Source: a virus
Length of the DNA stretch: 64,000 nucleotides
Direction: 5' to 3' (one strand)
IMG/VR virus record: IMGVR_UViG_3300027754_000039
Coordinates: 117,589-181,588 of that record
Shown: piece by piece, positions 9,545 to 60,398 of the stretch
How positions within the stretch are numbered: the first letter of the stretch is position 1
Layout of the letters: each line of letters opens with the position of its first letter
Made by a program: the position numbers and the translations under genes
Notes under the pieces: generated by a model
What the model saw: the letters and a program-made list of their open reading frames with translations, nothing else
The model's database searches: none
What the model was told of the DNA's origin: nothing

Positions 9545-9999
9545 TATATTATTACTTCTTCAACGGTTGTAGATGTTACTAAAAATGTAACTGGTTTATT
9601 AACTTCTTGCTCATTAACAGATACCTTTAATGATATTGTTATTCCATGTTCTTCATTTGACGGTCCTGCTGCTATGACAGTTTGAACTATTAAATCATTA
9701 ACTTGAATATATGGTAACCAAAATGATATAGCTTCTAATATAGAAGATTGTATTTGTTCTTTTAATAAATCCGTATTTTGTTCAAAAAGCGAATCTTGAA
9801 GACGTGTACCAAATAAAGGTTGTAATACTCGCTCGCCTTGACGAGTAAGTATTAAATTTTTTAAATTTGAAAGTGCTTGCTCTTCAGTGGAATAAGATAA
9901 ATCAAATAGTATTCCAGTCTTCCCAACTAAAGGAAGCTTAATACCAATTGCTACATTTTCTTCTAAATCTATAGGATTATATCTTATTTCGTATGACAT
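9544..9999 (-). CDS. Baseplate wedge protein gp25-like (GPW/gp25)
   Basis: NLKNLILTRQGERVLQPLFGTRL...I..AISFWLPYI motif. Confidence 0.85.
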   Translation of the reverse strand: MSYEIRYNPIDLEENVAIGIKLPLVGKTGILFDLSYSTEEQALSNLKNLILTRQGERVLQPLFGTRLQDSLFEQNTDLLKEQIQSSILEAISFWLPYIQVNDLIVQTVIAAGPSNEEHGITISLKVSVNEQEVNKPVTFLVTSTTVEEVII

Positions 10000-10484
10000 T
10001 AGTTACCTTTTTTCTTATCCATTGCTTTTATCAAAGACGAATAATCTCTTGTTAATGCTTTTACAACTGCCGCGCCTGCTTCTGTTTCAGCTAATTTAGA
10101 AACATCAACTCGTCTACCTTCAGTATCATACGTTGGTATAATTGATTTTGCGGACGGCGCCGGTTTACGACCCATTGTCGGCCACTCTTCAAAATTATTA
10201 TAATCTATACTTTCATCTAAACTAGCACCAGCATATTCATTTCTAAAACCAGCTGTGTCATTTAACAACTCATTTAAAGTTGGGTTCTCAGTGTATTGTT
10301 TTTTAACCGGTGTCTTGGCGATTACTTTAGTTGTAACAGCCGGTATTACAGCTTGTGTATATTTGGCGGTTGTTACTCGTTCGTTTATTATAGGAGTTAT
10401 TTTACTTAATTCCGTACGTACGGCATTCGAAACTTCTTCACGAATAACTTTTCTAAGTGCTTGTATAAAATCCTTTGAATTCAT
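9999..10484 (-). CDS. Hypothetical late protein with LRKVIREEV-type N-terminal motif
   Basis: N-terminus resembles the second leader class of the 47-55 kb array; late-type motif at 10500-10507. Confidence 0.55.
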   Translation of the reverse strand: MNSKDFIQALRKVIREEVSNAVRTELSKITPIINERVTTAKYTQAVIPAVTTKVIAKTPVKKQYTENPTLNELLNDTAGFRNEYAGASLDESIDYNNFEEWPTMGRKPAPSAKSIIPTYDTEGRRVDVSKLAETEAGAAVVKALTRDYSSLIKAMDKKKGN

Positions 10485-10520
10485 GTTACTGTCTTTTAAA
10501 TAAATATCTTTAATGTATTT

Positions 10521-29849: not shown

Positions 29850-29902
29850 TTTTCTTTTTTATTAATTGTTAAACATAAATATAAGGTACCTTTCTTATAT
29901 CG

Positions 29903-30273
29903 TGGACCCGGAGAGATTCGAACTCTCGTCCAAATTAAGTACTTCAATAAATTCATTTACAAGCTTAGTCTTGTTTTTCTAAACAGACAAAATAATCAAT
30001 TTTTTGGATCTTTAGAGAAATTGATAAAAACTGTGCAACCAGATAAGTCAGGCCTACTTCACTGTTTGTGCCCTTCTGTTCCTAGGATAGACACACCCCG
30101 TTAACTATGCTGCTATTGCAACTTCGTTGCTTACGAAAGACAATGCGTCTTCGAAAGTGAAATCAGAGATTTCGTTTGCGTTTAAGCTTTTATATAGGTT
30201 ATTAAAGAGTTTCCAATACTAACTCTGCTTGCATTTAAAGTAATACGCTTAACTGTCAAAACCGGTCGGGCCC
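29903..30273 (-). ncRNA. ssrA: tmRNA
   Basis: 5' GGGCCCG pairs with 3' CGGGTCC-A including G3-U70; T arm GAGAG-TTCGAAT-CTCTC; tag ORF 30105-30179 reads ANEISDFTFEDALSFVSNEVAIAA*; promoter at 30286-30317. Confidence 0.95.
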
Positions 30274-43372: not shown

Positions 43373-43485
43373 ATATTTAGGAAAGCAGAAGATGGGTGTG
43401 TGGACATCTACTTTTACGATTAGCATTACTTTGACTTCATTCAGTCCCCTCTCCCGCATGAGCAGTATTCCCTAATCAACCTTTG

Positions 43486-43554
43486 TAGTCATAGCAGGAC
43501 TCGAACCTACACCTTCCCAATACGAATTGGGGCTCTACATTGAGCTATATGACT
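43486..43554 (-). ncRNA. tRNA-like RNA D (6-nt anticodon loop)
   Basis: AGTCATA/TATGACT-A; GCTC..GAGC D stem; CCCAA-TTCGTA-TTGGG; GTAGG-TTCGAGT-CCTGC. Confidence 0.7.
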
Positions 43555-47584: not shown

Positions 47585-48001
47585 TTATTTAACTTTTTGT
47601 ATAGGAGCAATAACCTTATCTAGAAGTTTAGTTAACTCTTGTTCCGATCCATCGGTTAAAGTTGAAGCGCCAACTAAACTTCCTAAAGTTGATCCTTTAG
47701 GGCCGACAATAACATAAAGTTGATCCAGTCTAGGAGCTCCGGGAACTTTTTCATTTCTAACTACAATGCCATATTTATCACCTATATCATAAACGTAATA
47801 AGTATTAGTTTTTGTATGTTTACCTATAGGAGAGTTTTTGTTTGTTTTATGAATTAGCTTTAAATTCAATTGCTTATCCTTTGCATATTTTTCAAGCGAG
47901 GATTGTACAGAAGTAAGTTTCCATTCAGGATTGTAATAAGTTTCCTTAATTACTTTTTGAATTTCTTCCTTAATAATTTTTTGTAGCTCTGATTTTTTCA
48001 T
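47585..48001 (-). CDS. Leader-class protein (MKKSELQKIIKEEIQKVIKE)
   Basis: Shared leader; late-type motif at 48019-26. Confidence 0.7.
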   Translation of the reverse strand: MKKSELQKIIKEEIQKVIKETYYNPEWKLTSVQSSLEKYAKDKQLNLKLIHKTNKNSPIGKHTKTNTYYVYDIGDKYGIVVRNEKVPGAPRLDQLYVIVGPKGSTLGSLVGASTLTDGSEQELTKLLDKVIAPIQKVK

Positions 48002-48032
48002 TGTGTTTTATTTTATATATAAATATCGTTGT

Positions 48033-48524
48033 TTAAATCTTTACTATTACCGATCCATAGCTGTCTTCAAACTTCGCAGTTGGTATTTGCTTTTTGATAA
48101 ATGCCATGTATAAGTCATTTCTCTTAAAGCCTTTCTCGCCTTCCTTTTTTAAAGGCTCATACATAATGACTTTTATCATTTTGTTACGATTTAAATAATC
48201 TTTTATGATATCGACTATGGTAGACATAACTCGATACATTTCTCCTTTATTGGATACCGTAAACACATCGCCAGTATAATCGCCGGCCATGTTTGGCTCT
48301 GCACCGGGTATGATACCAAAGGACACGTCAATAGCTGCTAGTTCTTTATTATCATCATGAAAGTCTTCATATACATAATTCTCCAAAGCGACTTTATATG
48401 AAGTGTCTTGATCTGTTTTAAATGCAAAAAATACAGTATCTTCTTTAGTGAAAACTTTTTTCCATTTGTATGGAGTGGTTGTTGCTTCACCTACTTCTTT
48501 TAATATGTCTTTGAGTTTGATCAT
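48033..48524 (-). CDS. MIKLKDIL-leader protein, paralog family X
   Basis: NKGEMYRVMSTIVDIIK...RNDLY..FIKKQIP; similar to 48524-48997. Confidence 0.75.
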   Translation of the reverse strand: MIKLKDILKEVGEATTTPYKWKKVFTKEDTVFFAFKTDQDTSYKVALENYVYEDFHDDNKELAAIDVSFGIIPGAEPNMAGDYTGDVFTVSNKGEMYRVMSTIVDIIKDYLNRNKMIKVIMYEPLKKEGEKGFKRNDLYMAFIKKQIPTAKFEDSYGSVIVKI

Positions 48525-48997
48525 TATGATAGTGTTACACGATACTCCCCATGTCTGTAATCAACTTGAGCGTTAGGTAATTGCTTTTGTATATATGCTT
48601 TGTAAAGGTTGGCTCGACGAGTGTCATCTTCATAATTTTTATCAGGAACAAACTCAATTATCTTAACCGGCGGTTTACCTTCTTCAGCTATTTTAGCAAT
48701 ACAGTCCTTGATAATAGCAATTACAGTAGCCATTATTTTAAATTGCTCTCCTTTATTTGTTACGTCATGAAAGTCGCCTTCATCAGTTTTAAACATTACT
48801 GATACAATATTGTATCTGTCCTCGCTGGCTGTATTTACTGCCAATATAACTATGTATTTTAAATTGGACTCTGTCGTAAAATTGTAAGTGCGAATGTGTT
48901 TTCTTTCGTCTTGAAATAAACGTGGAGTGTATTTAAACTTGTATGGAGTGGCAGTGCCTTCACCTACTTCAGTTAATATGTCTTTGAGTTTGATCAT
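48524..48997 (-). CDS. MIKLKDIL-leader protein, paralog family X
   Basis: VTNKGEQFKIMATVIAIIK...RANLYKAYIQKQLP. Confidence 0.75.
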   Translation of the reverse strand: MIKLKDILTEVGEGTATPYKFKYTPRLFQDERKHIRTYNFTTESNLKYIVILAVNTASEDRYNIVSVMFKTDEGDFHDVTNKGEQFKIMATVIAIIKDCIAKIAEEGKPPVKIIEFVPDKNYEDDTRRANLYKAYIQKQLPNAQVDYRHGEYRVTLS

Positions 48998-49003
48998 TAT
49001 GAT

Positions 49004-49486
49004 TTACTTATTAGGCACAATATCTTTTACTTTATCAACAGCTATAATGTATTGTTTTATATTGTCAACTTTCTCATTAGGACCTTTAAAGGATATACGT
49101 TCTTCCTGCTCATCATATTGGCTAGTAGCATCAAAAAAGTTTCTTCTATCAGATTCTGATTCATCTTCTAACCAATCGTATTCCCAATTATCCGTATAGT
49201 CCCAGCCTGGTACGTATGCAAAAGGTTGTATTTTGTATTTGTTAGAAAGTTTATCGCCGTCAATCGTTATTCTATAATCTGTTTTTACATTCCAATTATT
49301 ACCTTTTCTATGAAAGTTTTTATTTCGAGTAAATGATATAAAATATAAAGTATGATCTCTATAGCTTTCAGTCGTTATGTTAAGTTCGTTAGAATCTAAA
49401 ATACTCTTTAATCCAGCTTTTGATGTATAATGATACAAAATGCCAACTTGTTTTGCCTCGTTTAGTATGTCGCGTAGTTTTATCAT
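49004..49486 (-). CDS. MIKLRDIL-leader protein, ADP-ribosyltransferase-like fold
   Basis: LYHYT...ILDSNEL...ISFTR...DEQEERI. Confidence 0.55.
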   Translation of the reverse strand: MIKLRDILNEAKQVGILYHYTSKAGLKSILDSNELNITTESYRDHTLYFISFTRNKNFHRKGNNWNVKTDYRITIDGDKLSNKYKIQPFAYVPGWDYTDNWEYDWLEDESESDRRNFFDATSQYDEQEERISFKGPNEKVDNIKQYIIAVDKVKDIVPNK

Positions 49487-50301
49487 ACCGTATGTATTTT
49501 TGTAATTAAAGAAGCTGGTAATCTGCCTTTGACTGCAAATTGTGAGGTCATTCTCATTGATTGTATTGCTGATGTAGTATCTACTTTTCCATGTTGCATT
49601 ACAGCTAACATTTGAATCATACTCATATTAGATTGAAAGTCATCATCTGCTGTAATCATTGACATTGGTATATTATCTACTTCAATAACAATAGGTTTTG
49701 TCTTAATACCCATTTTCTTATACGATTCAACTGCGTGATCTGCATAGTATGCTGCTCTCTGATAATCAATTGACCAATATGTTTTATCTTGAGAATCAGG
49801 ACCATAAAATTTATCCCATTTAAGAATTTCTTGATCTGTTTTAGATGGCGGAGTAATTCCTATTTTTTGAATAGATTCTAAATCTTTTGTTGTAGTACCA
49901 TGAAATGCTTTAGGAACTACATTGGAAAATGTAGCATCATATTGAATGAAGTCGGCAATTTTCAACGAGCCAATATTCTTTTTAACATTGGACATTGGAA
50001 TGTCAATTTTCCAAGTCATATCAACTAATTTAGCTTTAAGCATATCTTTAACTGCTTGTTGCATTTTTAAGATATCTTTGAAACTAGACCAATCATCATA
50101 ATCTTGCAGCTCAACTATTTTCTTTACAGGCTCAACACTCATAGGAAATATTTTATTCAAAACCATAGGTGGTGTCGCACCTGGTGACATAGCAACTAAA
50201 TCTCCATTGTTCCAAATTATGATATATGGTTTAGTTGTGTCAATTTTATCTATGTTTTGTATAGACTTTAATTCAAATAGTATGTCTTTGAGTTTGATCA
50301 T
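49483..50301 (-). CDS. MIKLKDIL-leader protein, H-type ADP-ribosyltransferase-like domain
   Basis: AFHGTT..DLESIQKIGI.P...TYWSIDYQRAAYYA...PIVIEV. Confidence 0.65.
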   Translation of the reverse strand: MIKLKDILFELKSIQNIDKIDTTKPYIIIWNNGDLVAMSPGATPPMVLNKIFPMSVEPVKKIVELQDYDDWSSFKDILKMQQAVKDMLKAKLVDMTWKIDIPMSNVKKNIGSLKIADFIQYDATFSNVVPKAFHGTTTKDLESIQKIGITPPSKTDQEILKWDKFYGPDSQDKTYWSIDYQRAAYYADHAVESYKKMGIKTKPIVIEVDNIPMSMITADDDFQSNMSMIQMLAVMQHGKVDTTSAIQSMRMTSQFAVKGRLPASLITKIHTV

Positions 50302-50307
50302 TTTAAT

Positions 50308-50631
50308 TTATTTCTTAACAAAAAAGTAGTGAGTATCATCATTTATAAAAATAAAATACACATCACTTTCTTCAGAGTATCTATATTCTGGTGTATATTT
50401 AGGATCAAGATCTGCTTTTTTTACCAATTTGTAATTGTCACTTGAAGGATCAATATGTAACCAAAACTCATCTTTAGATATTTTTTTAGCAGTATCCCAA
50501 GAATTGAAAAAATCTTCTTCATTGTCAAAAGCATTATTTATACATTCTCCATACTCATCAAAAGAGTTAGTACACGTACCTATGTAAATATAATCTTTGT
50601 TTTCCTTTAATATGTCTTTGAGCTTGATCAT
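50308..50631 (-). CDS. MIKLKDIL-leader protein, unknown domain
   Basis: Leader then YIGTC..SFDEYGEC. Confidence 0.7.
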   Translation of the reverse strand: MIKLKDILKENKDYIYIGTCTNSFDEYGECINNAFDNEEDFFNSWDTAKKISKDEFWLHIDPSSDNYKLVKKADLDPKYTPEYRYSEESDVYFIFINDDTHYFFVKK

Positions 50632-51113
50632 TTATATAAAAAATAATACGTGCCGTTATTAACTTGCTTCATTTCCAACTTAGTTGCTATAAGCGGAGCC
50701 ATCTTTTTATACAAATCTTTTCTAGAAGCTTCTTTAGCTGAAAAGAATATAAGATTGGATTTTTCTCGTTTGATTTTATCAACTACTGCATTGATAACAA
50801 TACCGAAGATCTTCGCTGCATCAGAACCTCCTAATCCAGTAATACCTTTACCCTTTTTAACATCTCTAAATTCAACATGATATCCTTCGCCATCATTAAA
50901 CATATCAAGTACTTCTTCAGGTAATAGTTTGCCCGCGGCGATAATAGCATTATCTGGCAAATTTAGGTATTCTAAAGAAGTAATGTCTATTGCATATTTT
51001 TGATTGTTAGGGCCAGTAAAGGTAGCAGTGAAATCTGTTTCTTCACCCTCACGCCATCTTATTTTTTCTTTGGTATCAAATAGCTCTTTTAAAAGTAATT
51101 CTAGTTTTATCAT
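50628..51113 (-). CDS. MIKLELLLKE-leader protein, distant family X paralog
   Basis: GLGGSDAAKIFGIVINAV...IFFSAKEASRKDLYKKM. Confidence 0.65.
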   Translation of the reverse strand: MIKLELLLKELFDTKEKIRWREGEETDFTATFTGPNNQKYAIDITSLEYLNLPDNAIIAAGKLLPEEVLDMFNDGEGYHVEFRDVKKGKGITGLGGSDAAKIFGIVINAVVDKIKREKSNLIFFSAKEASRKDLYKKMAPLIATKLEMKQVNNGTYYFLYK

Positions 51114-51114
51114 T

Positions 51115-51474
51115 TTATTTATTTTTAATTAACAACTCTCCTAACACTTCAATTCTACCAACTAACTCTTGAAAAGCTATTTGTTCAATAGACATTGTTT
51201 TGTTAGTAGCTTCGTATAATTGATTTAACAACTCTACATATTCTTCACGAGCCTTAGTTAAATCCAATTCTCCTTCAGCGGCTTTTTCATAGTAAGGTAG
51301 TTTTACCTTGTAATGATGCCAAGTTAGCAAAGCTAATCCACCTTTTTCTTTAGTAGTGTCTGTAATTGATTCAGCTCCGCTTAATCGAGTATCTGCAAAT
51401 TCTTCAAACGCTTTTTCTGATGTAGTTTCCTTTTCTTTAGGAGCCTCGGATAGTATGTTTTTGAGTTTGATCAT
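51115..51474 (-). CDS. MIKLKNIL-leader helical protein
   Basis: Leader; late-type motif at 51481-88. Confidence 0.7.
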   Translation of the reverse strand: MIKLKNILSEAPKEKETTSEKAFEEFADTRLSGAESITDTTKEKGGLALLTWHHYKVKLPYYEKAAEGELDLTKAREEYVELLNQLYEATNKTMSIEQIAFQELVGRIEVLGELLIKNK

Positions 51475-51496
51475 TTTAATATAAATATGTAAAAGA

Positions 51497-51796
51497 CTAT
51501 TTAATTTCTACATTTAAACCTTGACGCAATAAAGCATTGCATATAGGAGTTAGCTTTTCTACCGTGCCTGAATACACTACACACTTACCATTAAGATGTA
51601 CTGTTAAAGCCATTTGTTCTGCCTCGATAAGTTTTTTATTGCAATACTTTATTAAACATGAAATTACATGATCAAAGCTGTTCACGTCGTCGTTGTAAAG
51701 TATTAACGAGCTTGCAGGTGGCTCCATTGCATTGCTTATAAGAGTATCCATAATAGTATCTATGTCTTCCTCTATTTCTATTTCTGTTGAGTTCAT
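51497..51796 (-). CDS. clpS: ClpS N-degron adaptor
   Basis: LILYNDDVNSFDHVISCL...AEQMALTVHLNGKCVV. Confidence 0.88.
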   Translation of the reverse strand: MNSTEIEIEEDIDTIMDTLISNAMEPPASSLILYNDDVNSFDHVISCLIKYCNKKLIEAEQMALTVHLNGKCVVYSGTVEKLTPICNALLRQGLNVEIK

Positions 51797-51807
51797 ATTA
51801 GTCTTGT

Positions 51808-52092
51808 TTATCGACCTTCATATTGCCATAGCACAGCATTACAATATGCATGCACAGCACCTTCAGTCATATTTGTATAATGATCATGTTGTAAGTGAAT
51901 TGGATACGTTAAAAATCCAGGAGGGAATAGTTTCCAATCAATATCTTTACTTGTAATTTGTTCAGGAGGATTTGAATCCAACGTCTCTTTACAATACATA
52001 CAACAATTGTTTTGCTCTTTAATGTATTGCATTCTAACTTCTCTTCTTTGTTGTTGTGTTAGCTTTGTGTAATCAACTGGTAAATTATACAT
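51808..52092 (-). CDS. Endonuclease VII-like (His-Me finger) protein
   Basis: CMYC...HLQHDHYTNMTEGAVHAYCN. Confidence 0.7.
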   Translation of the reverse strand: MYNLPVDYTKLTQQQRREVRMQYIKEQNNCCMYCKETLDSNPPEQITSKDIDWKLFPPGFLTYPIHLQHDHYTNMTEGAVHAYCNAVLWQYEGR

Positions 52093-52165
52093 ATATCATT
52101 ATTTACATAAATATAATTTATTACTTTCAAAGTGCCAAATATCCTTTTGATAAATTCAAAAGAAA

Positions 52166-52195
52166 TCAGTAGAAAAAGCATAATTATGCTCTTTT
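52166..52195 (-). terminator. Terminator with TTTTCTACTGA tail
   Basis: AGCATA-AT-TATGCT followed by TTTTTCTACTGA. Confidence 0.55.
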
Positions 52196-52204
52196 AATAT
52201 TAGT

Positions 52205-52402
52205 TTAAATTAAATCTTTTAGCTTGATAATATCTTCTGATTTAGGTTCCATTAACTTTTCTATTCGCATAGTAAGTAAAGGTCTTCCATTTATAATTGG
52301 AAGTCCATATTCATCATACTCAATAGATTTAACTTTAACTCGCTTGTTTTTAAATCTACCTACTCGTACGATATCTCCTATTTCAATTGGGATCTTTATC
52401 AT
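52205..52402 (-). CDS. Small KOW/SH3-like protein ending in IKLKDLI
   Basis: IEIGDIVRVGRFKNKRVKV; leader-like motif at the C-terminus. Confidence 0.65.
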   Translation of the reverse strand: MIKIPIEIGDIVRVGRFKNKRVKVKSIEYDEYGLPIINGRPLLTMRIEKLMEPKSEDIIKLKDLI

Positions 52403-53316
52403 TTATTTTTAACTGACTTAATAAATTGTTGGAGAGCTTTTGCATATTCTCTATTAAGACTAAAGCCCATAGGAGTATCTGTTAAGCTATCAGAGTTATC
52501 GTATACTTCAATTATATCTTCAACACTATATACTGGTGAGAACTTTTCCTTAGCTGCTAATTTATTATATTTATCAACCATTGGTTTAAAGAATGGCGCA
52601 GCTTTAGTTAGCTTATGAACAAAATTGTCTTTAGGTTCAAATTTCCATGTATTTAAAAAAACTTGGGAATCAACATATGCTTCAAAAGTACCTTCACCTC
52701 CTATCCTTATAGTTTCTTCTTCACTTGGTGGGCCATCAAATATAATCTTAAGTAACTCAGGGGTAAAAATAAAATCATTATTTATTTTAGTAGCATATAC
52801 TACACGAACGCTATTCTCATTATTAGCAGTACCTTCAAACTTAAATGCAACTTTTGGATCTATAGTCCAAGATTGTGAGTTTCTTATTGGACTATACTTT
52901 AAATTTTTAAAACGAAATACCTCTCTACCACCTACTTTAACAATTGTATATTGTTTTTTCATAAATGCAAATCTGAGAGAATCTGTTTTTATAGATGTAC
53001 CTCGATATGCCATTTTACCAATAGGAGGTTGTAACACTTTAGGAAACTCTTTAGCTAAAGTTTGTAATAACTCTTTATTCTTTGCAAAGTATTTTGCAGT
53101 ACTAGAATCAGAGCTACTTAGCCAATCACTAATGACTACATACATCTTACCTTCCCATGGAGTATCAGGTTCTACTGGCTCTTCAGGTGCTTTTTGCAGC
53201 TTAGTTAAGTCAGGATCCTCTCCAAACAAAACATTACCAACTTTTTTTTGTATAGCTGGAGGAAGAGCTTCATATAAAGCCTTTACTTCCTTAAGAATTT
53301 GTTTATTACTCTTCAT
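52399..53316 (-). CDS. Leader-class protein with R-S-E type ADP-ribosyltransferase-like domain
   Basis: MKSNKQILKE; AYRG...SQSWTIDPKVAFKF...SEEETI. Confidence 0.65.
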   Translation of the reverse strand: MKSNKQILKEVKALYEALPPAIQKKVGNVLFGEDPDLTKLQKAPEEPVEPDTPWEGKMYVVISDWLSSSDSSTAKYFAKNKELLQTLAKEFPKVLQPPIGKMAYRGTSIKTDSLRFAFMKKQYTIVKVGGREVFRFKNLKYSPIRNSQSWTIDPKVAFKFEGTANNENSVRVVYATKINNDFIFTPELLKIIFDGPPSEEETIRIGGEGTFEAYVDSQVFLNTWKFEPKDNFVHKLTKAAPFFKPMVDKYNKLAAKEKFSPVYSVEDIIEVYDNSDSLTDTPMGFSLNREYAKALQQFIKSVKNK

Positions 53317-53333
53317 ATTAATAAATATCTAAA

Positions 53334-54008
53334 TTATTTCTTCTTCGGAAGGTTATTTAATCTCTCCTGGTAATAAGGACCTGTCTTTATCTTTTGATCT
53401 TTCAAAGACTTTTTATCATTATGCACAGGAACAGGTTCTCCAGTAACTTCATCTATGTAATACTTTTTATTGGCACCCCATGGAGACCCTACATAAATAA
53501 AATAACAATTGAAACAAAGAAATTGAACATTCTCCAAAGCATAGTTTTGTTTATTACCATCTATCCAATGCATCTTAAGTGGCATATCATAATCATATTG
53601 CCTACGCTCTTGAAACCCACAACAGTCACATCTCTCTTGCTTCCACCCTTCATTTATCAAACGCTTTTTAAAAGAATGCAAATTGAATTTAGGATGTTTA
53701 TTAGCAAATATCTCATCGATAGGTGTTGGCTGAAATGCCCAAGGTGCTGAAGCTTTTCTTCTATATCGAGTTTGAGGAAGTACTAATCGTTTAGCAAATC
53801 CATTCTCTTTGTGTAATTGATATAGTGTCTTACCTGTTGGCTCGTCAATATACATCTTAGCATATTTCTTCCAGGTAGCAAATGATACATGTAACCAAAC
53901 TGCCGCTTCTGAATTAGAAGTTGTATTGGCCATTGCATAGCGCAGCTGCGATTCCTTTAATTCATATCCCTTGTATTGTCCAAATGTACCTTTTCCATTT
54001 ATTCCCAT
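53334..54008 (-). CDS. HNH endonuclease-like protein
   Basis: RCDCCG...LKMHWIDGNKQNYALENVQFLCFNC. Confidence 0.75.
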   Translation of the reverse strand: MGINGKGTFGQYKGYELKESQLRYAMANTTSNSEAAVWLHVSFATWKKYAKMYIDEPTGKTLYQLHKENGFAKRLVLPQTRYRRKASAPWAFQPTPIDEIFANKHPKFNLHSFKKRLINEGWKQERCDCCGFQERRQYDYDMPLKMHWIDGNKQNYALENVQFLCFNCYFIYVGSPWGANKKYYIDEVTGEPVPVHNDKKSLKDQKIKTGPYYQERLNNLPKKK

Positions 54009-54054
54009 AAACCTTATTTTAATATAAATATAAGATTGTTATATATTCGGCCAA

Positions 54055-54083
54055 TCAGTAGAAAAGCTAGCAAAAATGCTAGC
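54055..54083 (-). terminator. Terminator with TTTTCTACTGA tail
   Basis: GCTAGCA-TTTT-TGCTAGC followed by TTTTCTACTGA. Confidence 0.65.
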
Positions 54084-54096
54084 CTTCTATTTAATT

Positions 54097-55008
54097 TTAG
54101 TTAATTTCTTTAACCATAGTTTTTAAATCTTCTTCTGATAAAGCTACAAATACATAAACACCTGGAGCGTCTGTTGCATAAAACATATAATCGCCTGGAT
54201 TAACTCCTGTCGATCCTTGACCAATCTCTCCTAAATACTTATATTCATTATATTCATCAGTTCCAGCATCTAATACTTTATATGTTTTATTAACCCATAA
54301 AGCTGTCATTCTACCTGGTCCTGTAGGGATAGCAGCAATTTCAGATACTGACTGTTTAGCTTGATGTGCTGCTTGAACACTTGCTAATGTAGGTAAAGGC
54401 TCTCCAAATTTTCTTTCGCCACGCTCCCAAGCATATCCTTCTTTCAAAGTCTTTTTAGATTTGCTAGGCTTTTTAGATTCCATAAATTGGTCATCACCCA
54501 TCTCTTCCATTTCTTCAAAATACTCTTCAATGCTTTTATAATTTCTTGACACTGCTTTCCATTCGTCATTCATTTCTTTAACAGCAGTCTTTATTTGTGA
54601 AGGACTAGCATATTCAAAAGTTGGAGAAGACATTATGAAGTCTCCGATTTTATCTAAATCATCTTTTGTAGCTACTATTTCACGCATACCTGCCATACCA
54701 CCTGACATTCCTCTTATTCTTCCTAATCCATCATCTAGAGCCATTTCAATAGCATCATCTAGATACTCATCTAACTCAGGAACTTTATTCACTAATTTTA
54801 AATTGGCTTTTGGATCGGTAGTGCTCATTATAATACTTAACTCATCCTTAATGTCTTTGACAATCTCTTTTGCACGTTTTGCATCTTTACCACCCTTTTT
54901 CATCATAGCATGTAAAATAGCTACGTTTTCTTTTGGATTACGATAAGTTTCAGTTAAAGCTTTTTTAACTTCTTCTCTAATTACTTTTTGTAAGTCTAGT
55001 TTGTTCAT
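54097..55008 (-). CDS. Leader-class multidomain protein (MNKLDLQKVIREEVKKALTE)
   Basis: Leader plus internal xxE junction-like motifs (FME, TLKE, SVSE). Confidence 0.7.
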   Translation of the reverse strand: MNKLDLQKVIREEVKKALTETYRNPKENVAILHAMMKKGGKDAKRAKEIVKDIKDELSIIMSTTDPKANLKLVNKVPELDEYLDDAIEMALDDGLGRIRGMSGGMAGMREIVATKDDLDKIGDFIMSSPTFEYASPSQIKTAVKEMNDEWKAVSRNYKSIEEYFEEMEEMGDDQFMESKKPSKSKKTLKEGYAWERGERKFGEPLPTLASVQAAHQAKQSVSEIAAIPTGPGRMTALWVNKTYKVLDAGTDEYNEYKYLGEIGQGSTGVNPGDYMFYATDAPGVYVFVALSEEDLKTMVKEIN

Positions 55009-55014
55009 TTTAGT

Positions 55015-55344
55015 TTATTTTACTGGTACTCGTTTAATCTCTGTCTTCGTACGCACAATAGCTGTCTTATCTAATTTCTTAGCAACGTCACTTAATTTAG
55101 TACCCATTACCGTAGCACCTGGACCTGCAATATCAACTACTACAGTGTCAGGTTTAACGCCTGGCTTAATAGTTAATTTAACAGGATAGTCTCTTTTCAT
55201 TTCAGGTCGCTTAGTAAAAAGTTCTAATTCCTTAGTAATCTCTTTAGCTTTTTGAGATGTAATTACTATTCTACGAAACGCATCTTCAGTTAATACATTT
55301 TGAATTTCTTCTTTTATTATTGCTCTTAACTCTGATGCTTTCAT
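55015..55344 (-). CDS. Leader-class protein (MKASELRAIIKEEIQNVLTE)
   Basis: Leader; late-type motif at 55388-95. Confidence 0.7.
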   Translation of the reverse strand: MKASELRAIIKEEIQNVLTEDAFRRIVITSQKAKEITKELELFTKRPEMKRDYPVKLTIKPGVKPDTVVVDIAGPGATVMGTKLSDVAKKLDKTAIVRTKTEIKRVPVK

Positions 55345-55407: not shown

Positions 55408-56691
55408 TTATTGTATAACTTTTACAATCTTTCCATTTGAGTAGTGATGTAAAACTAATCCTTGATAATCAGAAGTTACTGGTCGTCCCAGTAAATCTGT
55501 TATTTTAATAAGATCAGCAAGTTGCTCAGAGATTTTATTATCAATGTAAATTATATTTGAGTAGGTAAATGTTTGATTAAAATCAACTTGTTTTAATCTG
55601 TAATAATTAATTACATTTTTTATAAATGTATAGTCTTCAAATAAATAAAAACTTGGGGTACTAATTGTGCCTGCTCCTTTTATATTAGCAATGTCATTCC
55701 AATTTATACCGTCAGTACTTCTTTCTAATTCATAAAAATCATTTTTAGTTTCTGTAGCTGTAATCCAAGTTAAGTTATTATATTTGTCTTTGTTTTTTCC
55801 TTCAAAATTAACTAATTCAATTGGTAAATTACTACACATAGCTCCGGAAGTAGCACTTAAAACATAATTACCATAAACTGATGTTGATGAATAATATCCT
55901 ACACTTATAAAATAAATTATACCCATTCCTGAACACCAAGTTACTGTTGAATAAAGACTACTTAAAGCACAAACACCATCATCATCATTACAAGTAACTT
56001 CAATCATGCTATTTAATACACTACAAGACCCAGTATATACTCTTATTTCAGTATCAAAATTTGTAGATGCGTTACAAGTTGATGCTGATAATTGAGTATT
56101 GTTTCCTACTACTTTATACCAAACATTTGAACCAAAAGTACCACAATTTGATATAGATGTAGGTACATCACTTATTGCTCCATTAGTTGATAAAACTCCA
56201 CTATTGTAAGGTAAACTAGTAATATTCGTAGCATTAATACAATTATCATTTGCTATAATAGAAACAACACAAGTTTCTCTATAAGTAAAAATAGTGCTTG
56301 AAGATAAATTTGCGCAAGAGTAGTTTGTTAATAATATTGAGTATGCTCCTGAGGTTGCGCAAGCCCAAACAATAGATGCTTTGGTGCCACTACAAATAGG
56401 ACCATTATCGTCATTTGAAGTTACTAAAATTGCGGTTACGGGGTTAGTACCAGAATATAGTCTTAAATAAGTATCATTTGCATTAATACTAGTGCAACTA
56501 CTTAATGTGTAAGTACAGCCGGCAGTTGCATTAAATGTCCAATATCTTTTAGCATTAGCACTAACGGTAGTACTTTGCATTATTGCATTAGGAGTAATAA
56601 CTCCCATATTTGTTAAAGAAACTGTGCTACAAAATTGGGCTTTAGTAATTAAAAAACTTAAAGTAAATATTATTGTTAATAGTTGTTTCAT
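55408..56691 (-). CDS. Secreted Cys-rich protein with LPIEL Ig-like domain and type A-like T9SS CTD
   Basis: Signal peptide A^Q; LPIELVNFEG...W.TATE..ND...ERS.DG...YYRLKQVDF; KITDLLGR...GKIVKV tail. Confidence 0.8.
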   Translation of the reverse strand: MKQLLTIIFTLSFLITKAQFCSTVSLTNMGVITPNAIMQSTTVSANAKRYWTFNATAGCTYTLSSCTSINANDTYLRLYSGTNPVTAILVTSNDDNGPICSGTKASIVWACATSGAYSILLTNYSCANLSSSTIFTYRETCVVSIIANDNCINATNITSLPYNSGVLSTNGAISDVPTSISNCGTFGSNVWYKVVGNNTQLSASTCNASTNFDTEIRVYTGSCSVLNSMIEVTCNDDDGVCALSSLYSTVTWCSGMGIIYFISVGYYSSTSVYGNYVLSATSGAMCSNLPIELVNFEGKNKDKYNNLTWITATETKNDFYELERSTDGINWNDIANIKGAGTISTPSFYLFEDYTFIKNVINYYRLKQVDFNQTFTYSNIIYIDNKISEQLADLIKITDLLGRPVTSDYQGLVLHHYSNGKIVKVIQ

Positions 56692-56727
56692 TTTAGTAAA
56701 TATTATTGTTAATAGTTGTTTTATTTT
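56662..56727. repeat. 33-bp tandem duplication at the gene junction
   Basis: agtaaatattattgttaatagttgttt(c/t)atttt twice, one mismatch. Confidence 0.9.
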
Positions 56728-59700
56728 AATAAAGTAACGTGTCCTATTTTTTCTATTTTTACATTAGCATTGTTTATTGCTATTATTACATATACATACA
56801 CTCCATTTTGACAATATATACCTTTAAATGTTCCATCCCATCCCTTAGTAATATCAGTACTTACAAATATTTGCTCACCCCATCTATCATATATCCACAT
56901 TTTGTATGTTTTAATACCAGATCCTTTTGGTTTAAATACATCATTTTCACTATCACCATTAGGAGTAAAGGCATTTGGGATATATAATAAAAATTCTTCT
57001 TTAATTTCAAGTATTTTAGTTATTGTGTCTTTACATCCAAACTCTGTAGTTACAACCATAGTAATTGGGAATTTATCTTGCACATCATAAATTCTTGTTG
57101 GAGTGAATTCGGTTGGAGTGTCTATATTACTAAATTCCCAATTGTAAGTATAATTTTTATTTAATGGTGAAGGATAAAACGTTACTTTATTTTTAGAAAC
57201 AGTGGTTGGATCTTGCGGATCCCATATAAAATTAGCAATTGGAGTTGGATAAACATTTATAACGTTTGGATATTTGAATATTTCACGGCAGCCATTAGTA
57301 CCAGTTGACACTGTTTCTAAAGTGTAACTTCCTGCAGGTAAACAAATAATAATACTATCACCATAATACACTTTATCCTTATTAAATACGTAATTTACAA
57401 ACCCAGCATCTTTTATTTTTGAATTATATAATGCACAAAATGGTTCACATTTATTAGCATTTACTTGAAAGTTAGGAATAGGAGCACTATTTACATTTAA
57501 TGTAAAGGTATGGTTTAGAGTATATTGAGGGCAAGAAACATCAAACACAGATATATTGTAAATCATTGTTCCAATACTTGTACCAATTTGTATACTTCCG
57601 TTTGCGCTAGATAGTCCTACTTCTGGTATCCAATTGTAAGCATAATTTCCACTTCCATTTCCTGCTTGTGCGGTTATAGTAAAGCTATCTCCTTTACAAA
57701 TTGTTTTATTTGAAGGAGTATTTTGCCAAACAATAGGATTTAATACTTGTAAGTTAGTACTTCCATAAGTTTTACATCCGTTTAAATCAACAGTTAAGTT
57801 ATAAGTTCCTGTGTTTAATAAATTAACATTAGGTATAAATAAATTTTGTGTAATTGAATTATATCCAGGACCTGTCCAAGTATATGAAGAAGCTCCTAAT
57901 GGACCAGTAACATTATAATTACTATTGTAACATAACTGAATGTATGGAGTTAATGTAAAATTAATTTTAGGATTAACTAATAATGTAGTTGTATTTGTGT
58001 TATAACAAGTTATATTTCCATTTGTAAATGCAGCTGTAACTGTATAATTTCCATTCCAACTTGAATTTAGATTTTGGAAATATGTTATTGGTTGGGGTAC
58101 ATTAAAATTATTAGGGCCGGACCAAGTGTATGAAATAGCTCCTTGAGCTGTTGCTGTTAAAGCAGCATTGTTGTTTTCACAAGCAATTATTTGTGGTATA
58201 ACAGTTATTGAGTTAACTAGTACTATAGAAAGATTTGTTGTGTTATAAGTTGTACAAGAAACTGAACCAATACTAAATACTGCTGCTATGCTATAAGTTC
58301 CATTTAAGTTTGGTTGAGCATTAAATGTATATGAAGGTAATGTTCCCGTAAATCCATTTGTGGAAGTCCAAATATAATTAGGATTTCCTGCTGCTGTAGC
58401 TGTTATTGATATGTTTGTGTTTGGGCAAGCATTTTGAAATGGTATAACAGAAATCTGATTCATTGGAACAACAGATACATTTGATACTGCCGTTGAAGAA
58501 CAAACTAAGGTAGTGCTAGGACTTGTAAACGTAGCTGTAACAGAATAGTTGCCTGAGTTAGCAGGTGTTACTGATATTAGGATAGGATTTTGTTGAGTAT
58601 TATTATAATTAGGTCCTGTCCAACTAAATGAATTTGCTCCTAATACACTTGCATTTAAGTTTACATTTGTGCCTTGACATTGAGTGTAGGTAGAAATTAC
58701 AGATACTTGTGCTATAGGTACTATTACTAAATTACTATTTGAAGTTGAACTACAAACACCACCATTTGTAAATGTATTTACTACCGTAACAGAGTATGTT
58801 CCAGTATTATTTGGAATTGAACTTGCAATTAATGGATTTGCAAGATTAGAATTAAATCCATTTGGTCCAAACCAATTGTAACTAGTTGTACCGGCAGCAC
58901 TTGTTGTAACAGATAGTGAAACAGGCGAGCCTTGGCAGACCGGTCCGGTATTTGAAACAGAAGTTATTGTTGGTGTAGGGTTAACAGTTACTAAAGTTGT
59001 TTGAGTTCCAACACAACCAGCTGTATTTGTAAATGAAACTGAATAAATAGTTGATGCAATTGGATTCGCAATAACGTTAGGTCCGCTAATAGTATTTAAG
59101 GTTGCCGGCGGAGCCCAAGTATATGTTGGAGCACCGTTTGCAGTTAAGGCAGATGTATTTCCCGAACAAATTGTACCGCTGGTAATTGTAATAGGATTTA
59201 ATGGAGTTGTAGTAACTGAAACAACAGCTGTTCCTGTTTTACAACCAAGGTTATCAGCAACGTTAACAGTATATGTACCAGATGTTAATCCGGTTGCAAC
59301 TTGCGTATTTTGATTCGTAGGAGTCCAAGTATAAGTATATGCTGGATTACCTCCTAAAACAGTAACAGTAGCATTTGATGTAGGACAAGATGGTGTACTT
59401 AAAGCAGTAACAGTTAAACAAGGACCAGTTTGCCAAAACATACCCGCCATATTTAATGAATAACAGTCGCCGGTACTTGTAATACCATAGTTTGCGGTTG
59501 TTTGTCCGTTTACTGCTGGAGCACCAGGTGCAGGAATGTAATCCCATATTTGCTGGCTTGCAATAGGAAACCCTGCATTATTTACAAGGCTATTCATACG
59601 TAAGTTAGGAGAAGAAATCCTTTGTAAATCTCCTACCAACATAAAATTTTGAGTTGTTGTAGGATTACCACAAACATTAAAACCAGTAATTAAACTGTTA

Positions 59701-60398
59701 ACTGAACCTCCAACACCTACCTGACAGCCATCGGCAATAACAATACTACCAGTAATGTTTAAAGCAGGGTCAACATATACTATAAATAAAGTCGCACCAT
59801 CAGTATCCTTTGAAGGAGCTTGAGGCATAACCGGACAACCAGAAAGTGTATAAGTACCATTACCAGTAATAACTGCAGTTACATTAGCACGAGAAGTCCA
59901 AGAGCCATTATAACCCCAGCATTTATCAGTATGAAAACCAATTTGTGTCATTGCAAAAACCTGATTAACAGCAGAAGGATTTACTAAAGTAGCATTAAAA
60001 TTACCTGAACCTGTTGGGCCAGAACCACCGGCATACAAAAAAGCTGCTTGAATAATAGCTCCTACAGGTATTCCGGAAACAATAATAGGACAAGGTTGAG
60101 TTGTACCGGTTCCTGGAGGAACTCCGCTAAAAACTCTTTTATGTAAACGGGCCGAAACCTGTGTATAACCCAATCCACAAGCTGTTTGAGTATAGCTGGT
60201 TGCGATAACACCATTACCATTCATTACATTATTTGTTGAGTTCCCTATCGGTCTCAAATTTGAAATAGATGTAGTGTCTGCCCTAGGACAGTTATGACAA
60301 GGGGTACCAGGTAAATGAGCTGGATTTGTTTGAGCTGAGGCTGTAAGGCTTATTATAGCCATACTTGTAATAATAAGCCATTTTAATTTTGTTTTCAT
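56721..60398 (-). CDS. Large adhesin-like protein with Ig/SprB/PKD repeats and type B T9SS (gliding motility-associated) CTD
   Basis: Signal peptide A^Q; repeated YSWTGP...YTVTA units; GGNPAYTYTW; PIANFIW; YIPNAFTPNGD..NDVF...IYDRWGE...WDGTF..GVYVY. Confidence 0.9.
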   Translation of the reverse strand: MKTKLKWLIITSMAIISLTASAQTNPAHLPGTPCHNCPRADTTSISNLRPIGNSTNNVMNGNGVIATSYTQTACGLGYTQVSARLHKRVFSGVPPGTGTTQPCPIIVSGIPVGAIIQAAFLYAGGSGPTGSGNFNATLVNPSAVNQVFAMTQIGFHTDKCWGYNGSWTSRANVTAVITGNGTYTLSGCPVMPQAPSKDTDGATLFIVYVDPALNITGSIVIADGCQVGVGGSVNSLITGFNVCGNPTTTQNFMLVGDLQRISSPNLRMNSLVNNAGFPIASQQIWDYIPAPGAPAVNGQTTANYGITSTGDCYSLNMAGMFWQTGPCLTVTALSTPSCPTSNATVTVLGGNPAYTYTWTPTNQNTQVATGLTSGTYTVNVADNLGCKTGTAVVSVTTTPLNPITITSGTICSGNTSALTANGAPTYTWAPPATLNTISGPNVIANPIASTIYSVSFTNTAGCVGTQTTLVTVNPTPTITSVSNTGPVCQGSPVSLSVTTSAAGTTSYNWFGPNGFNSNLANPLIASSIPNNTGTYSVTVVNTFTNGGVCSSTSNSNLVIVPIAQVSVISTYTQCQGTNVNLNASVLGANSFSWTGPNYNNTQQNPILISVTPANSGNYSVTATFTSPSTTLVCSSTAVSNVSVVPMNQISVIPFQNACPNTNISITATAAGNPNYIWTSTNGFTGTLPSYTFNAQPNLNGTYSIAAVFSIGSVSCTTYNTTNLSIVLVNSITVIPQIIACENNNAALTATAQGAISYTWSGPNNFNVPQPITYFQNLNSSWNGNYTVTAAFTNGNITCYNTNTTTLLVNPKINFTLTPYIQLCYNSNYNVTGPLGASSYTWTGPGYNSITQNLFIPNVNLLNTGTYNLTVDLNGCKTYGSTNLQVLNPIVWQNTPSNKTICKGDSFTITAQAGNGSGNYAYNWIPEVGLSSANGSIQIGTSIGTMIYNISVFDVSCPQYTLNHTFTLNVNSAPIPNFQVNANKCEPFCALYNSKIKDAGFVNYVFNKDKVYYGDSIIICLPAGSYTLETVSTGTNGCREIFKYPNVINVYPTPIANFIWDPQDPTTVSKNKVTFYPSPLNKNYTYNWEFSNIDTPTEFTPTRIYDVQDKFPITMVVTTEFGCKDTITKILEIKEEFLLYIPNAFTPNGDSENDVFKPKGSGIKTYKMWIYDRWGEQIFVSTDITKGWDGTFKGIYCQNGVYVYVIIAINNANVKIEKIGHVTLLK

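Follow-up and report, generated by a model that had tools for sequence, protein, structure and literature searches.

Here, we describe an array of genes carried by an uncultured relative of phage T4, whose host is probably a member of the Bacteroidota. The array lies in the last 64 kb (positions 117,589 to 181,588) of the 181,588-bp IMG/VR virus record IMGVR_UViG_3300027754_000039, for which completeness is rated 100% and 241 open reading frames (ORFs) were called; this 64-kb stretch is the window, in whose coordinates positions are given unless marked as genome positions. All genes between 47585 and 55344 are on the minus strand, and 11 of them (A to K; Table 1) begin with a leader peptide that ends in hydrophobic-x-Glu, out of about two dozen leader genes in the whole genome. 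An initial annotation, made from the letters alone, had listed seven adjacent genes beginning MIKL(K/R/E)xxLxE, one beginning MKSNKQILKE, and three with longer leaders (starts at 48001, 55008, and 55344), and had proposed that the region is a library of capsid cargo. Every position and N-terminus was as claimed, and the longer leaders are 20 residues long (MKxSELxxIIKEEIxxVLxE). By capsid protein, Microcystis phage Mel-JY01 (58%) is the closest cultured relative, followed by Flavobacterium phage immuto (55%). No match to the array was returned when 50,697 phage records were searched with Megablast, and tblastn gave none for B, one weak match for D, and a match in immuto alone for H; no close cultured relative is therefore available for comparison.

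The short leader, MIKLKD(I/L)LxE, has 10 residues, with hydrophobic residues at positions 4 and 7, an acidic residue at 6, Ile or Leu at 8, and Glu at 10, and the long leader, MKxSE(L/F)xxxI(K/R)EE(I/V)xxxLxE, has 20. The Glu is invariant and the residue just before it varies freely. Of the 241 ORFs, 12 have the Glu of the motif [LIVMF][LI]xE at residue 10, 6 have it at residue 12, and 5 have it at residue 20, over a background of 1.0 per position (residues 25 to 60; Poisson p of ~8e-10 at residue 10), and the recurrence of the leader is far beyond chance. A genome-wide scan for both motifs, suggested with the initial annotation, found both recurring, the head module included. Additional short leaders start genes at genome positions 100653, 100875, and 102744 (beside the terminase) and 71012; additional long leaders start genes at genome positions 5573, 51068, 51518, 72548, and 127587, the last of which lies in the window (Table 1).

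The bodies behind the leaders were said to be unrelated apart from one trio of paralogs. BLASTP indeed finds no kinship among them, and A and K align over residues 1 to 24 only. Within the trio, B and C are clear paralogs; G is joined to them only by weak shared matches to DUF6934 and phrog_6387/16075 profiles, and BLASTP did not confirm it as their paralog. B and C are DUF6934-like and G probably is as well; in the protein atlas, C falls only among virus-only DUF6934-like clusters. No function could be assigned from PHROGs or Pfam to A, F, H, J, K, or any of the additional leader genes, and sequence searches of solved structures with B and J returned nothing significant. The predicted mature proteins would range from 7 to 35 kDa, with isoelectric points (pI) from 4.4 to 10.1.

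Table 1. Genes and elements of the array and one further leader gene, in window coordinates; arrows mark predicted cleavage after the leader.
Feature	Position	Strand	Description
A	47585..48001	-	138 aa; long leader MKKSELQKIIKEEIQKVIKE↓T; body 13 kDa, pI 9.5; ATATTTAT 25 nt upstream
B	48033..48524	-	163 aa; MIKLKDILKE↓V; DUF6934-like; paralog of C
C	48524..48997	-	157 aa; MIKLKDILTE↓V; DUF6934-like, virus-only family
D	49004..49486	-	160 aa; MIKLRDILNE↓A; probable HYD1-type ADP-ribosyltransferase
E	49483..50301	-	272 aa; MIKLKDILFE↓L; C-terminal domain with predicted ADP-ribosyltransferase fold
F	50308..50631	-	107 aa; MIKLKDILKE↓N; acidic body
G	50628..51113	-	161 aa; MIKLELLLKE↓L; weak DUF6934/phrog_6387 links to B and C
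H	51115..51474	-	119 aa; MIKLKNILSE↓A; opens the closely spaced H-to-B run; member of the widespread 'KGGLALLTWHHYK' family
Candidate late promoter element ATATTTAT	51481..51488	-	14 nt upstream of H, fronting the H-to-B run
ClpS homolog, leaderless	51497..51796	-	Pfam ClpS, 6.1e-17; inside the array
Endonuclease-VII-like small gene, leaderless	51808..52092	-	Pfam Endonuclease_7, 0.0017, below cut-off; own ATATTTAT
KOW-like gene	52205..52402	-	65 aa; tail ...EDIIKLKDLI* resembles a truncated leader
I	52399..53316	-	305 aa; MKSNKQILKE↓V; second conserved site L14-x-E16; predicted R-S-ExE ADP-ribosyltransferase
HNH-type endonuclease gene, leaderless	53334..54008	-	assigned by sequence motifs; own ATATTTAT; no Pfam match
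J	54097..55008	-	303 aa; mosaic; long leader at residues 1-20 (..LTE↓)
K	55015..55344	-	109 aa; long leader MKASELRAIIKEEIQNVLTE↓D; basic body, pI 10.1; ATATTTAT 51 nt upstream
Further long-leader-like gene	9999..10484	-	among tail genes; MNSKDFIQALRKVIREEVSNAVRTE↓L; ATATTTAT 23 nt upstream; no Pfam match

One more leader-bearing gene outside the array, of 354 aa (genome 101399-102463; L005:16399-17463, minus strand), begins MKQELITEAARLQKLAGILKE↓A and has a DGHHRWS motif recalling ParB/Srx-fold proteins; a sequence search of solved structures was not significant (E value, 0.49), so the ParB-like hint is unconfirmed.

Searching IMG/VR with a back-translated pattern of the short leader gave at least 135 matches on at least 120 contigs, and a pattern covering residues 1 to 14 of the long leader gave at least 165 matches at 119 or more loci. 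Among the matches listed, 131 of 135 short-leader matches start ORFs of ≥40 aa, with a stop codon a few codons upstream in nearly all, and 149 of 165 long-leader matches are at ORF starts. The reversed short-leader pattern had 0 matches in IMG/VR. In 596 Gb of cellular genomes, the short-leader pattern had 93 matches only (62 not at ORF starts), of which the convincing ones are on low-GC metagenome or single-cell contigs resembling phage DNA. Of the 165 long-leader matches listed, 104 have their first hydrophobic-x-Glu ending precisely at residue 20 and 23 have it ending at residue 19; this was not imposed by the search, because its pattern stopped at residue 14. Conservation collapses right after the Glu in both leader samples, and Pro directly follows the Glu in 0/124 short and 0/97 long leaders (matches listed), being common one to four positions further on. 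In immuto, Mel-JY01, and LR756508, the exact MIKL pattern seldom occurs, and these phages use other leader variants. Those of immuto include MIKLIDLLTE, MRLLELLRE, and long leaders of the type MKKSEL.... Further leader families of immuto (W01) are MENFDLKKFLVENKLT on four genes (1803, 103806, 117631, and 118632) and MKKQILSEQFxRMQxLAGIITE on two (25061 and 111675), so the lineage uses more than two leader types.

The initial annotation had tied its proposal to a gp21-like prohead protease with xxE specificity encoded in the same genome. A gp21-family protease was found (genome 93282-93896; Pfam PF03420, 2.3e-30; phrog_207, 2e-55), and the residues aligned with T4 gp21 His85 and Ser140 are invariant in the protease alignment. 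It is part of a head module in T4 order, comprising portal, small core genes, protease, an acidic scaffold-like gene, and major capsid protein (Portal_T4, 7.8e-75; Peptidase_S77, 2.3e-30; Gp23, 3.8e-80). The columns of T4 gp23 E65 and A66, which border the cut by which T4 gp23 loses its 65-residue propeptide during maturation (PMC9026906), are invariant in the capsid protein alignment and read LVTE↓A in this genome. Because H85/S140 and E65↓A66 are kept, a gp21-like enzyme with a conserved Glu-specific substrate site is present. The head proteins have leader-like starts of their own, namely MSLHSILNE (capsid), MKDLLKE (scaffold), and MKLKDLLEF and ...FLKE (core-region genes). Records checked for the protease were picked among the larger leader-bearing ones: PF03420 was detected in 17 of 28 and in 9 of 19, most of these records being 15 to 60% fragments, and in 6 of the 7 leader-bearing records that are ≥90% complete.

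Also in the head module, between the protease and scaffold genes, is a 244-aa gene (genome 91999-92733; L005:6999-7733, minus strand) with an internal KSIKLADLLKE↓GEDL at about residues 55 to 65; it may encode a core protein with an internal cut site.

When array content was compared in related phages, a check proposed with the initial annotation, the leaders were kept and the genes behind them changed. The 146 short-leader proteins (matches listed plus this genome) form at least 87 BLAST clusters, 63 of them singletons. In two records whose E is 82% identical (L358 and L359), the array retains E, H, the HNH gene, and a B-like gene; it has no D, F, G, or C and instead contains four or five different MIKL genes, together with a series of further genes that have long leaders. 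A third record (L360) has E alone beside head genes. Bodies and leaders also exchange partners: the D body has a short leader here and in L054 and a long leader in L087, with the same junction, E↓(A/G)KQ(V/I)G; the H homolog of immuto has a different leader, MRLLELLRE; and the I body follows MIKLKDILSE in L055 and L123. A K homolog in L208 has the long leader, as K does here.

Exchange reaches inside J, whose modules span residues 21 to 110 (..MRE↓), 111 to 190 (..LKE↓), 191 to 223 (..VSE↓), and 224 to 303. Its homologs delete, swap, or fuse modules exactly after x-x-Glu sites. Some are without the first module (junction exactly LTE↓VVATK), some have the leader directly before module 3, and in some the last module is replaced right after ...(L/I)(K/T)E↓, one such replacement standing directly behind a long leader in L170. 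The module 3 body is likewise found behind different leaders in different phages, and in P0185 the K body is fused to the last modules of J via ...TLKE↓. Joints that always follow hydrophobic-x-Glu would be expected if a protease separates the modules and any order is tolerated, and they suggest that cargo evolves by cut-and-paste at protease sites. This variety makes it extremely unlikely that the array is a relic of tandem duplication, with bodies diverged past recognition and N-termini kept for some unrelated structural reason. Such a history would account for B and C, which are true paralogs, and for the weak profile matches that G shares with them, but not for bodies of different folds and families (three predicted ADP-ribosyltransferase clades, DUF6934, and others), for families that carry other leaders in other phages, or for the number of BLAST clusters behind the short leader.

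At the DNA level, copies average 70% identity within the leader, 38% in the sequence upstream of it, and 32% in the sequence downstream, and I2, K3, L4, L8, and E10 are each written with two to four synonymous codons in the ten short-leader copies. Since the invariant residues vary in synonymous codons, the peptide is the level that is conserved and under selection. The same codon variation makes it very improbable that the conserved start works as nucleic acid (by serving translation initiation or by offering a recombination handle for exchanging cassettes) and that the peptide has no role; also at odds with this are the invariant Glu next to a free preceding residue, the avoidance of Pro after the Glu, and the hydrophobic-x-Glu kept at residue 20 of the long leader, outside the part searched for. 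In its favor, the leaders are nearly the only DNA stretches that still match distant relatives (array DNA compared with five large, more distant leader-bearing records matched little beyond them), the genes of the H-to-B run are translationally coupled, and a truncated leader remnant marks a likely rearrangement point. A possible role of the leaders in recombination is compatible with a role of the peptide in packaging, and does not replace it.

The remnant (52205-52234, minus strand) has ATT for ATG and a stop at codon 9 and is followed by a hairpin and the Endonuclease-VII-like gene. The same KOW-like body has a full MIKLKDLLLE leader in L048, and the tail of the KOW-like gene here looks like the scar of a cargo gene lost through rearrangement. 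The HNH gene, which recurs at 74% identity next to the arrays of L358 and L359 although these have a different content, is probably a mobile insert; together with the Endonuclease-VII-like gene, also interspersed in the array, it may belong to mobile elements driving array turnover.

Three array proteins, D, E, and I, are predicted ADP-ribosyltransferases. D matches Pfam Tox-ART-HYD1 (2e-5; 25.6 bits at a cut-off of 25) from residue 17 over positions 1 to 49 only of the 97 in the profile. The E family alignment has invariant L4, E10, FHGTT, and ADDDF, as well as H134, Y175, and D219-D221, and the top Foldseek matches of its AlphaFold2 model (predicted local distance difference test [pLDDT] score, 72) are all of ADP-ribosyltransferase fold (pertussis S1, Tpt1/KptA, and DarT; E values, 9e-5 to 6e-3; template modeling [TM] scores, 0.22 to 0.42). 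In I, R105, S149-W-T151, and E199-x-E201 are invariant in 21 homologs and make up the R / S-x-T / E-x-E triad typical of R-S-ExE ADP-ribosyltransferases, and the best Foldseek matches of the model are to the Vis ADP-ribosyltransferase (6e-4; probability, 1.0; TM score, 0.27 to 0.35). Both structure models are of moderate confidence (pLDDT, ~72), and no Pfam ADP-ribosyltransferase family matched E or I.

These folds bear on where the proteins would act. The leaders might be cut capsid-targeting propeptides of proteins that work inside the particle, as core or scaffold accessories or in DNA condensation or stabilization, and are then degraded or retained. The scaffold and core-region proteins do have leader-like N-termini, and several members of the cargo (A and K; Table 1) resemble the DNA-associated internal proteins of T4 in their small size and basic pI. 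We nevertheless regard this as unlikely, given three enzyme-like ADP-ribosyltransferase folds whose closest analogue is the injected enzyme T4 Alt, and given a fast turnover of content between relatives, which fits host-directed better than structural functions.

A ClpS homolog sits inside the array, and a ClpS-like gene is found ~0.5 kb from an E homolog in a distant relative (L362:9292-9558). Cleavage after the leader would give E and G a Leu as their first residue, so the phage ClpS may influence how stable the cargo is. Both observations would also suit a shared N-terminus that controls stability (a zymogen-type inhibitory propeptide or a Clp/N-end-rule tag) or directs proteins to a site other than the capsid. 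We hold this to be decidedly improbable: across phages, the leader and the prohead protease occur together, the capsid and scaffold proteins have N-termini similar to the leader, N-degron residues are uncommon after the Glu in the wider leader sample, and the leader is without membrane or secretion signal features.

The initial annotation had noted a late-type motif on several units, and ATATTTAT does lie 12 to 51 nt upstream of A, H, I, and K. Genome-wide it occurs 49 times in sense and 17 times in antisense orientation, mostly 12 to 61 nt before an ATG and often extended to GATATTTAT(A/T). It precedes portal, scaffold, sheath-size, baseplate-region, and many tail-region genes as well as six array units. 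Besides the copy in front of H, its first bases on the minus strand of the window are at 48026 (A), 52114 (Endonuclease-VII-like gene), 53328 (I), 54031 (HNH gene), and 55395 (K), with more at 10507, 5503, and 1272. As a candidate late promoter of this lineage, it differs from the TATAAATA of T4. Stops and starts from H to B overlap or abut, with translational coupling, and these genes are probably one unit behind the motif at 51488. The shared motif fits late expression of the array. A scan for sigma-70 promoters showed no enrichment (47 sites, 52.8 expected) and is for that reason uninformative on timing.

Taken together, the head protease, the genome-wide leaders, their agreement with the T4 tag rule, the turnover of the array, and the motif shared with structural genes support the capsid-cargo interpretation of the initial annotation, and each computational check suggested with it turned out in its favor. 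We consider it likely, at a probability of roughly 0.7, that the array is a late-expressed, interchangeable set of capsid cargo of a T4-like phage, targeted in the manner of T4 and trimmed by the protease. What was observed here comprises the leaders with the statistics on them, the protease, the conserved substrate site in the capsid protein, the association of leaders with the protease across phages, the swapping of leaders and modules, and the fold assignments. Docking, cleavage, late timing, and ejection are the steps that we infer. By analogy with T4, the leader peptide would dock each protein on the scaffolding core during prohead formation, and the shell would close around the core. The gp21-family prohead protease would then cut after the leader Glu, freeing the mature protein inside the head, and multimodule proteins such as J would also be cut at their internal hydrophobic-x-Glu joints. 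The mature proteins, D, E, and I among them, would stay with the DNA and leave together with it at the next infection, like T4 Alt.

Several points weigh against this interpretation. Our literature search turned up neither virion proteomes nor data on N-termini or on the timing of transcripts for this phage or any close cultured relative, and no cargo body is homologous to a T4 internal protein. The terminase N-terminus, MSQAKTLKEIIKEEY, looks like a long leader, so the specificity of the long-leader motif is incomplete. In one complete record with a leader (G019; 207 kb), neither an S77 protease nor Gp23 was detectable, the single leader match of this record being one that could have arisen by chance. 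The candidate late promoter is a shared motif only, and the ADP-ribosyltransferase calls consist of a borderline Pfam score, conserved motifs, and low-TM Foldseek matches (0.25 to 0.42) of models with a pLDDT of ~72.

The kind of system is already known, as diverse internal proteins of T-even phages share a capsid-targeting sequence only (PMC3012670, PMC9026906). In the T4 tag, targeting depends on positions 4 and 7, and processing on positions 8 and 10 (PMC9026906); we verified the tag, MKTYQEFIAE, on two genes in the T4 record. With Asp at position 10, the T4 tag is still targeted and is no longer processed. The short leader is alike in being N-terminal and 10 residues long, with hydrophobic residues at 4 and 7, Ile or Leu at 8, Glu at 10, and unrelated bodies behind it, and the two genomes also have in common a gp21-family protease and a head module of the gp20/22/23 kind. 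The array differs from T4 in its tag (MIKLKDILxE), in bodies without homology to those of T4, and in number, with about two dozen tagged genes here and IPI-III described in T4 reviews. It further differs in a second, 20-residue leader class that falls outside the T4 definition and ends in the same type of site, and in tagged mosaics with predicted internal cut-site joints.

T4 Alt is a packaged and injected ADP-ribosyltransferase that gp21 cuts at ITE-6 and LTE-619 (PMC5694885). Shared with Alt are an ADP-ribosyltransferase-type protein, a short N-terminal propeptide ending in hydrophobic-x-Glu, and a phage with a gp21 protease; here, however, three enzymes of three clades are predicted in place of one, at 18 to 34 kDa versus ~70 kDa. 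In phiKZ, 201phi2-1, and SPN3US, propeptide-bearing ejection proteins are cut by gp21-like proteases at (S/A/G)-x-E (PMC5694885, PMC7411985). In these phages, as proposed here, many head-packaged proteins are cut C-terminal to Glu by a related protease, and long propeptides can contain several cut sites. Their propeptides are long, however, with no common short tag and with a small residue instead of Ile or Leu two before the Glu, and the rest of their head is not of T4 type.

In the literature that we searched, neither the leader string nor such leaders in metagenomes are described. Apparently new relative to that literature are the leader sequence, which hardly varies over hundreds of low-GC contigs from uncultured sources; the second class of leaders, 20 residues long; the count of tagged genes; the protease-site mosaics; and three ADP-ribosyltransferase-like cargo proteins in one array. 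A wider proposal, to which we give even odds, is that the two near-invariant address peptides and the protease-site joints form a general loading code, readable from sequence, of a large uncultured low-GC T4-like clade. This code would pack dozens to hundreds of unrelated protein families, some as polyproteins cut apart by the head protease, for delivery with the DNA. If so, the injected arsenal of uncultured phages could be listed directly from metagenomes, and the two leader lengths might set different amounts or positions in the head.

The injected components other than DNA decide the first minutes of infection (host takeover and defense escape) and are known for few cultured phages only. 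Should the leaders act as the T4 tag does, one could predict from sequence which proteins an entire uncultured lineage packages. The array also offers three new candidate phage ADP-ribosyltransferases, and its leaders could serve as packaging tags for engineered T4-like capsids of phages other than coliphages.

Directly upstream of the array on the minus strand are genes for two leaderless proteins of 427 aa (55408-56691; no Pfam match) and 1,225 aa (56721-60398) with Bacteroidota-style signal peptides. Elsewhere in the window, ARAGORN predicted a transfer-messenger RNA (tmRNA) gene (29902-30273, minus strand) and a tRNA-like gene with an abnormal anticodon loop (43485-43554, minus strand).

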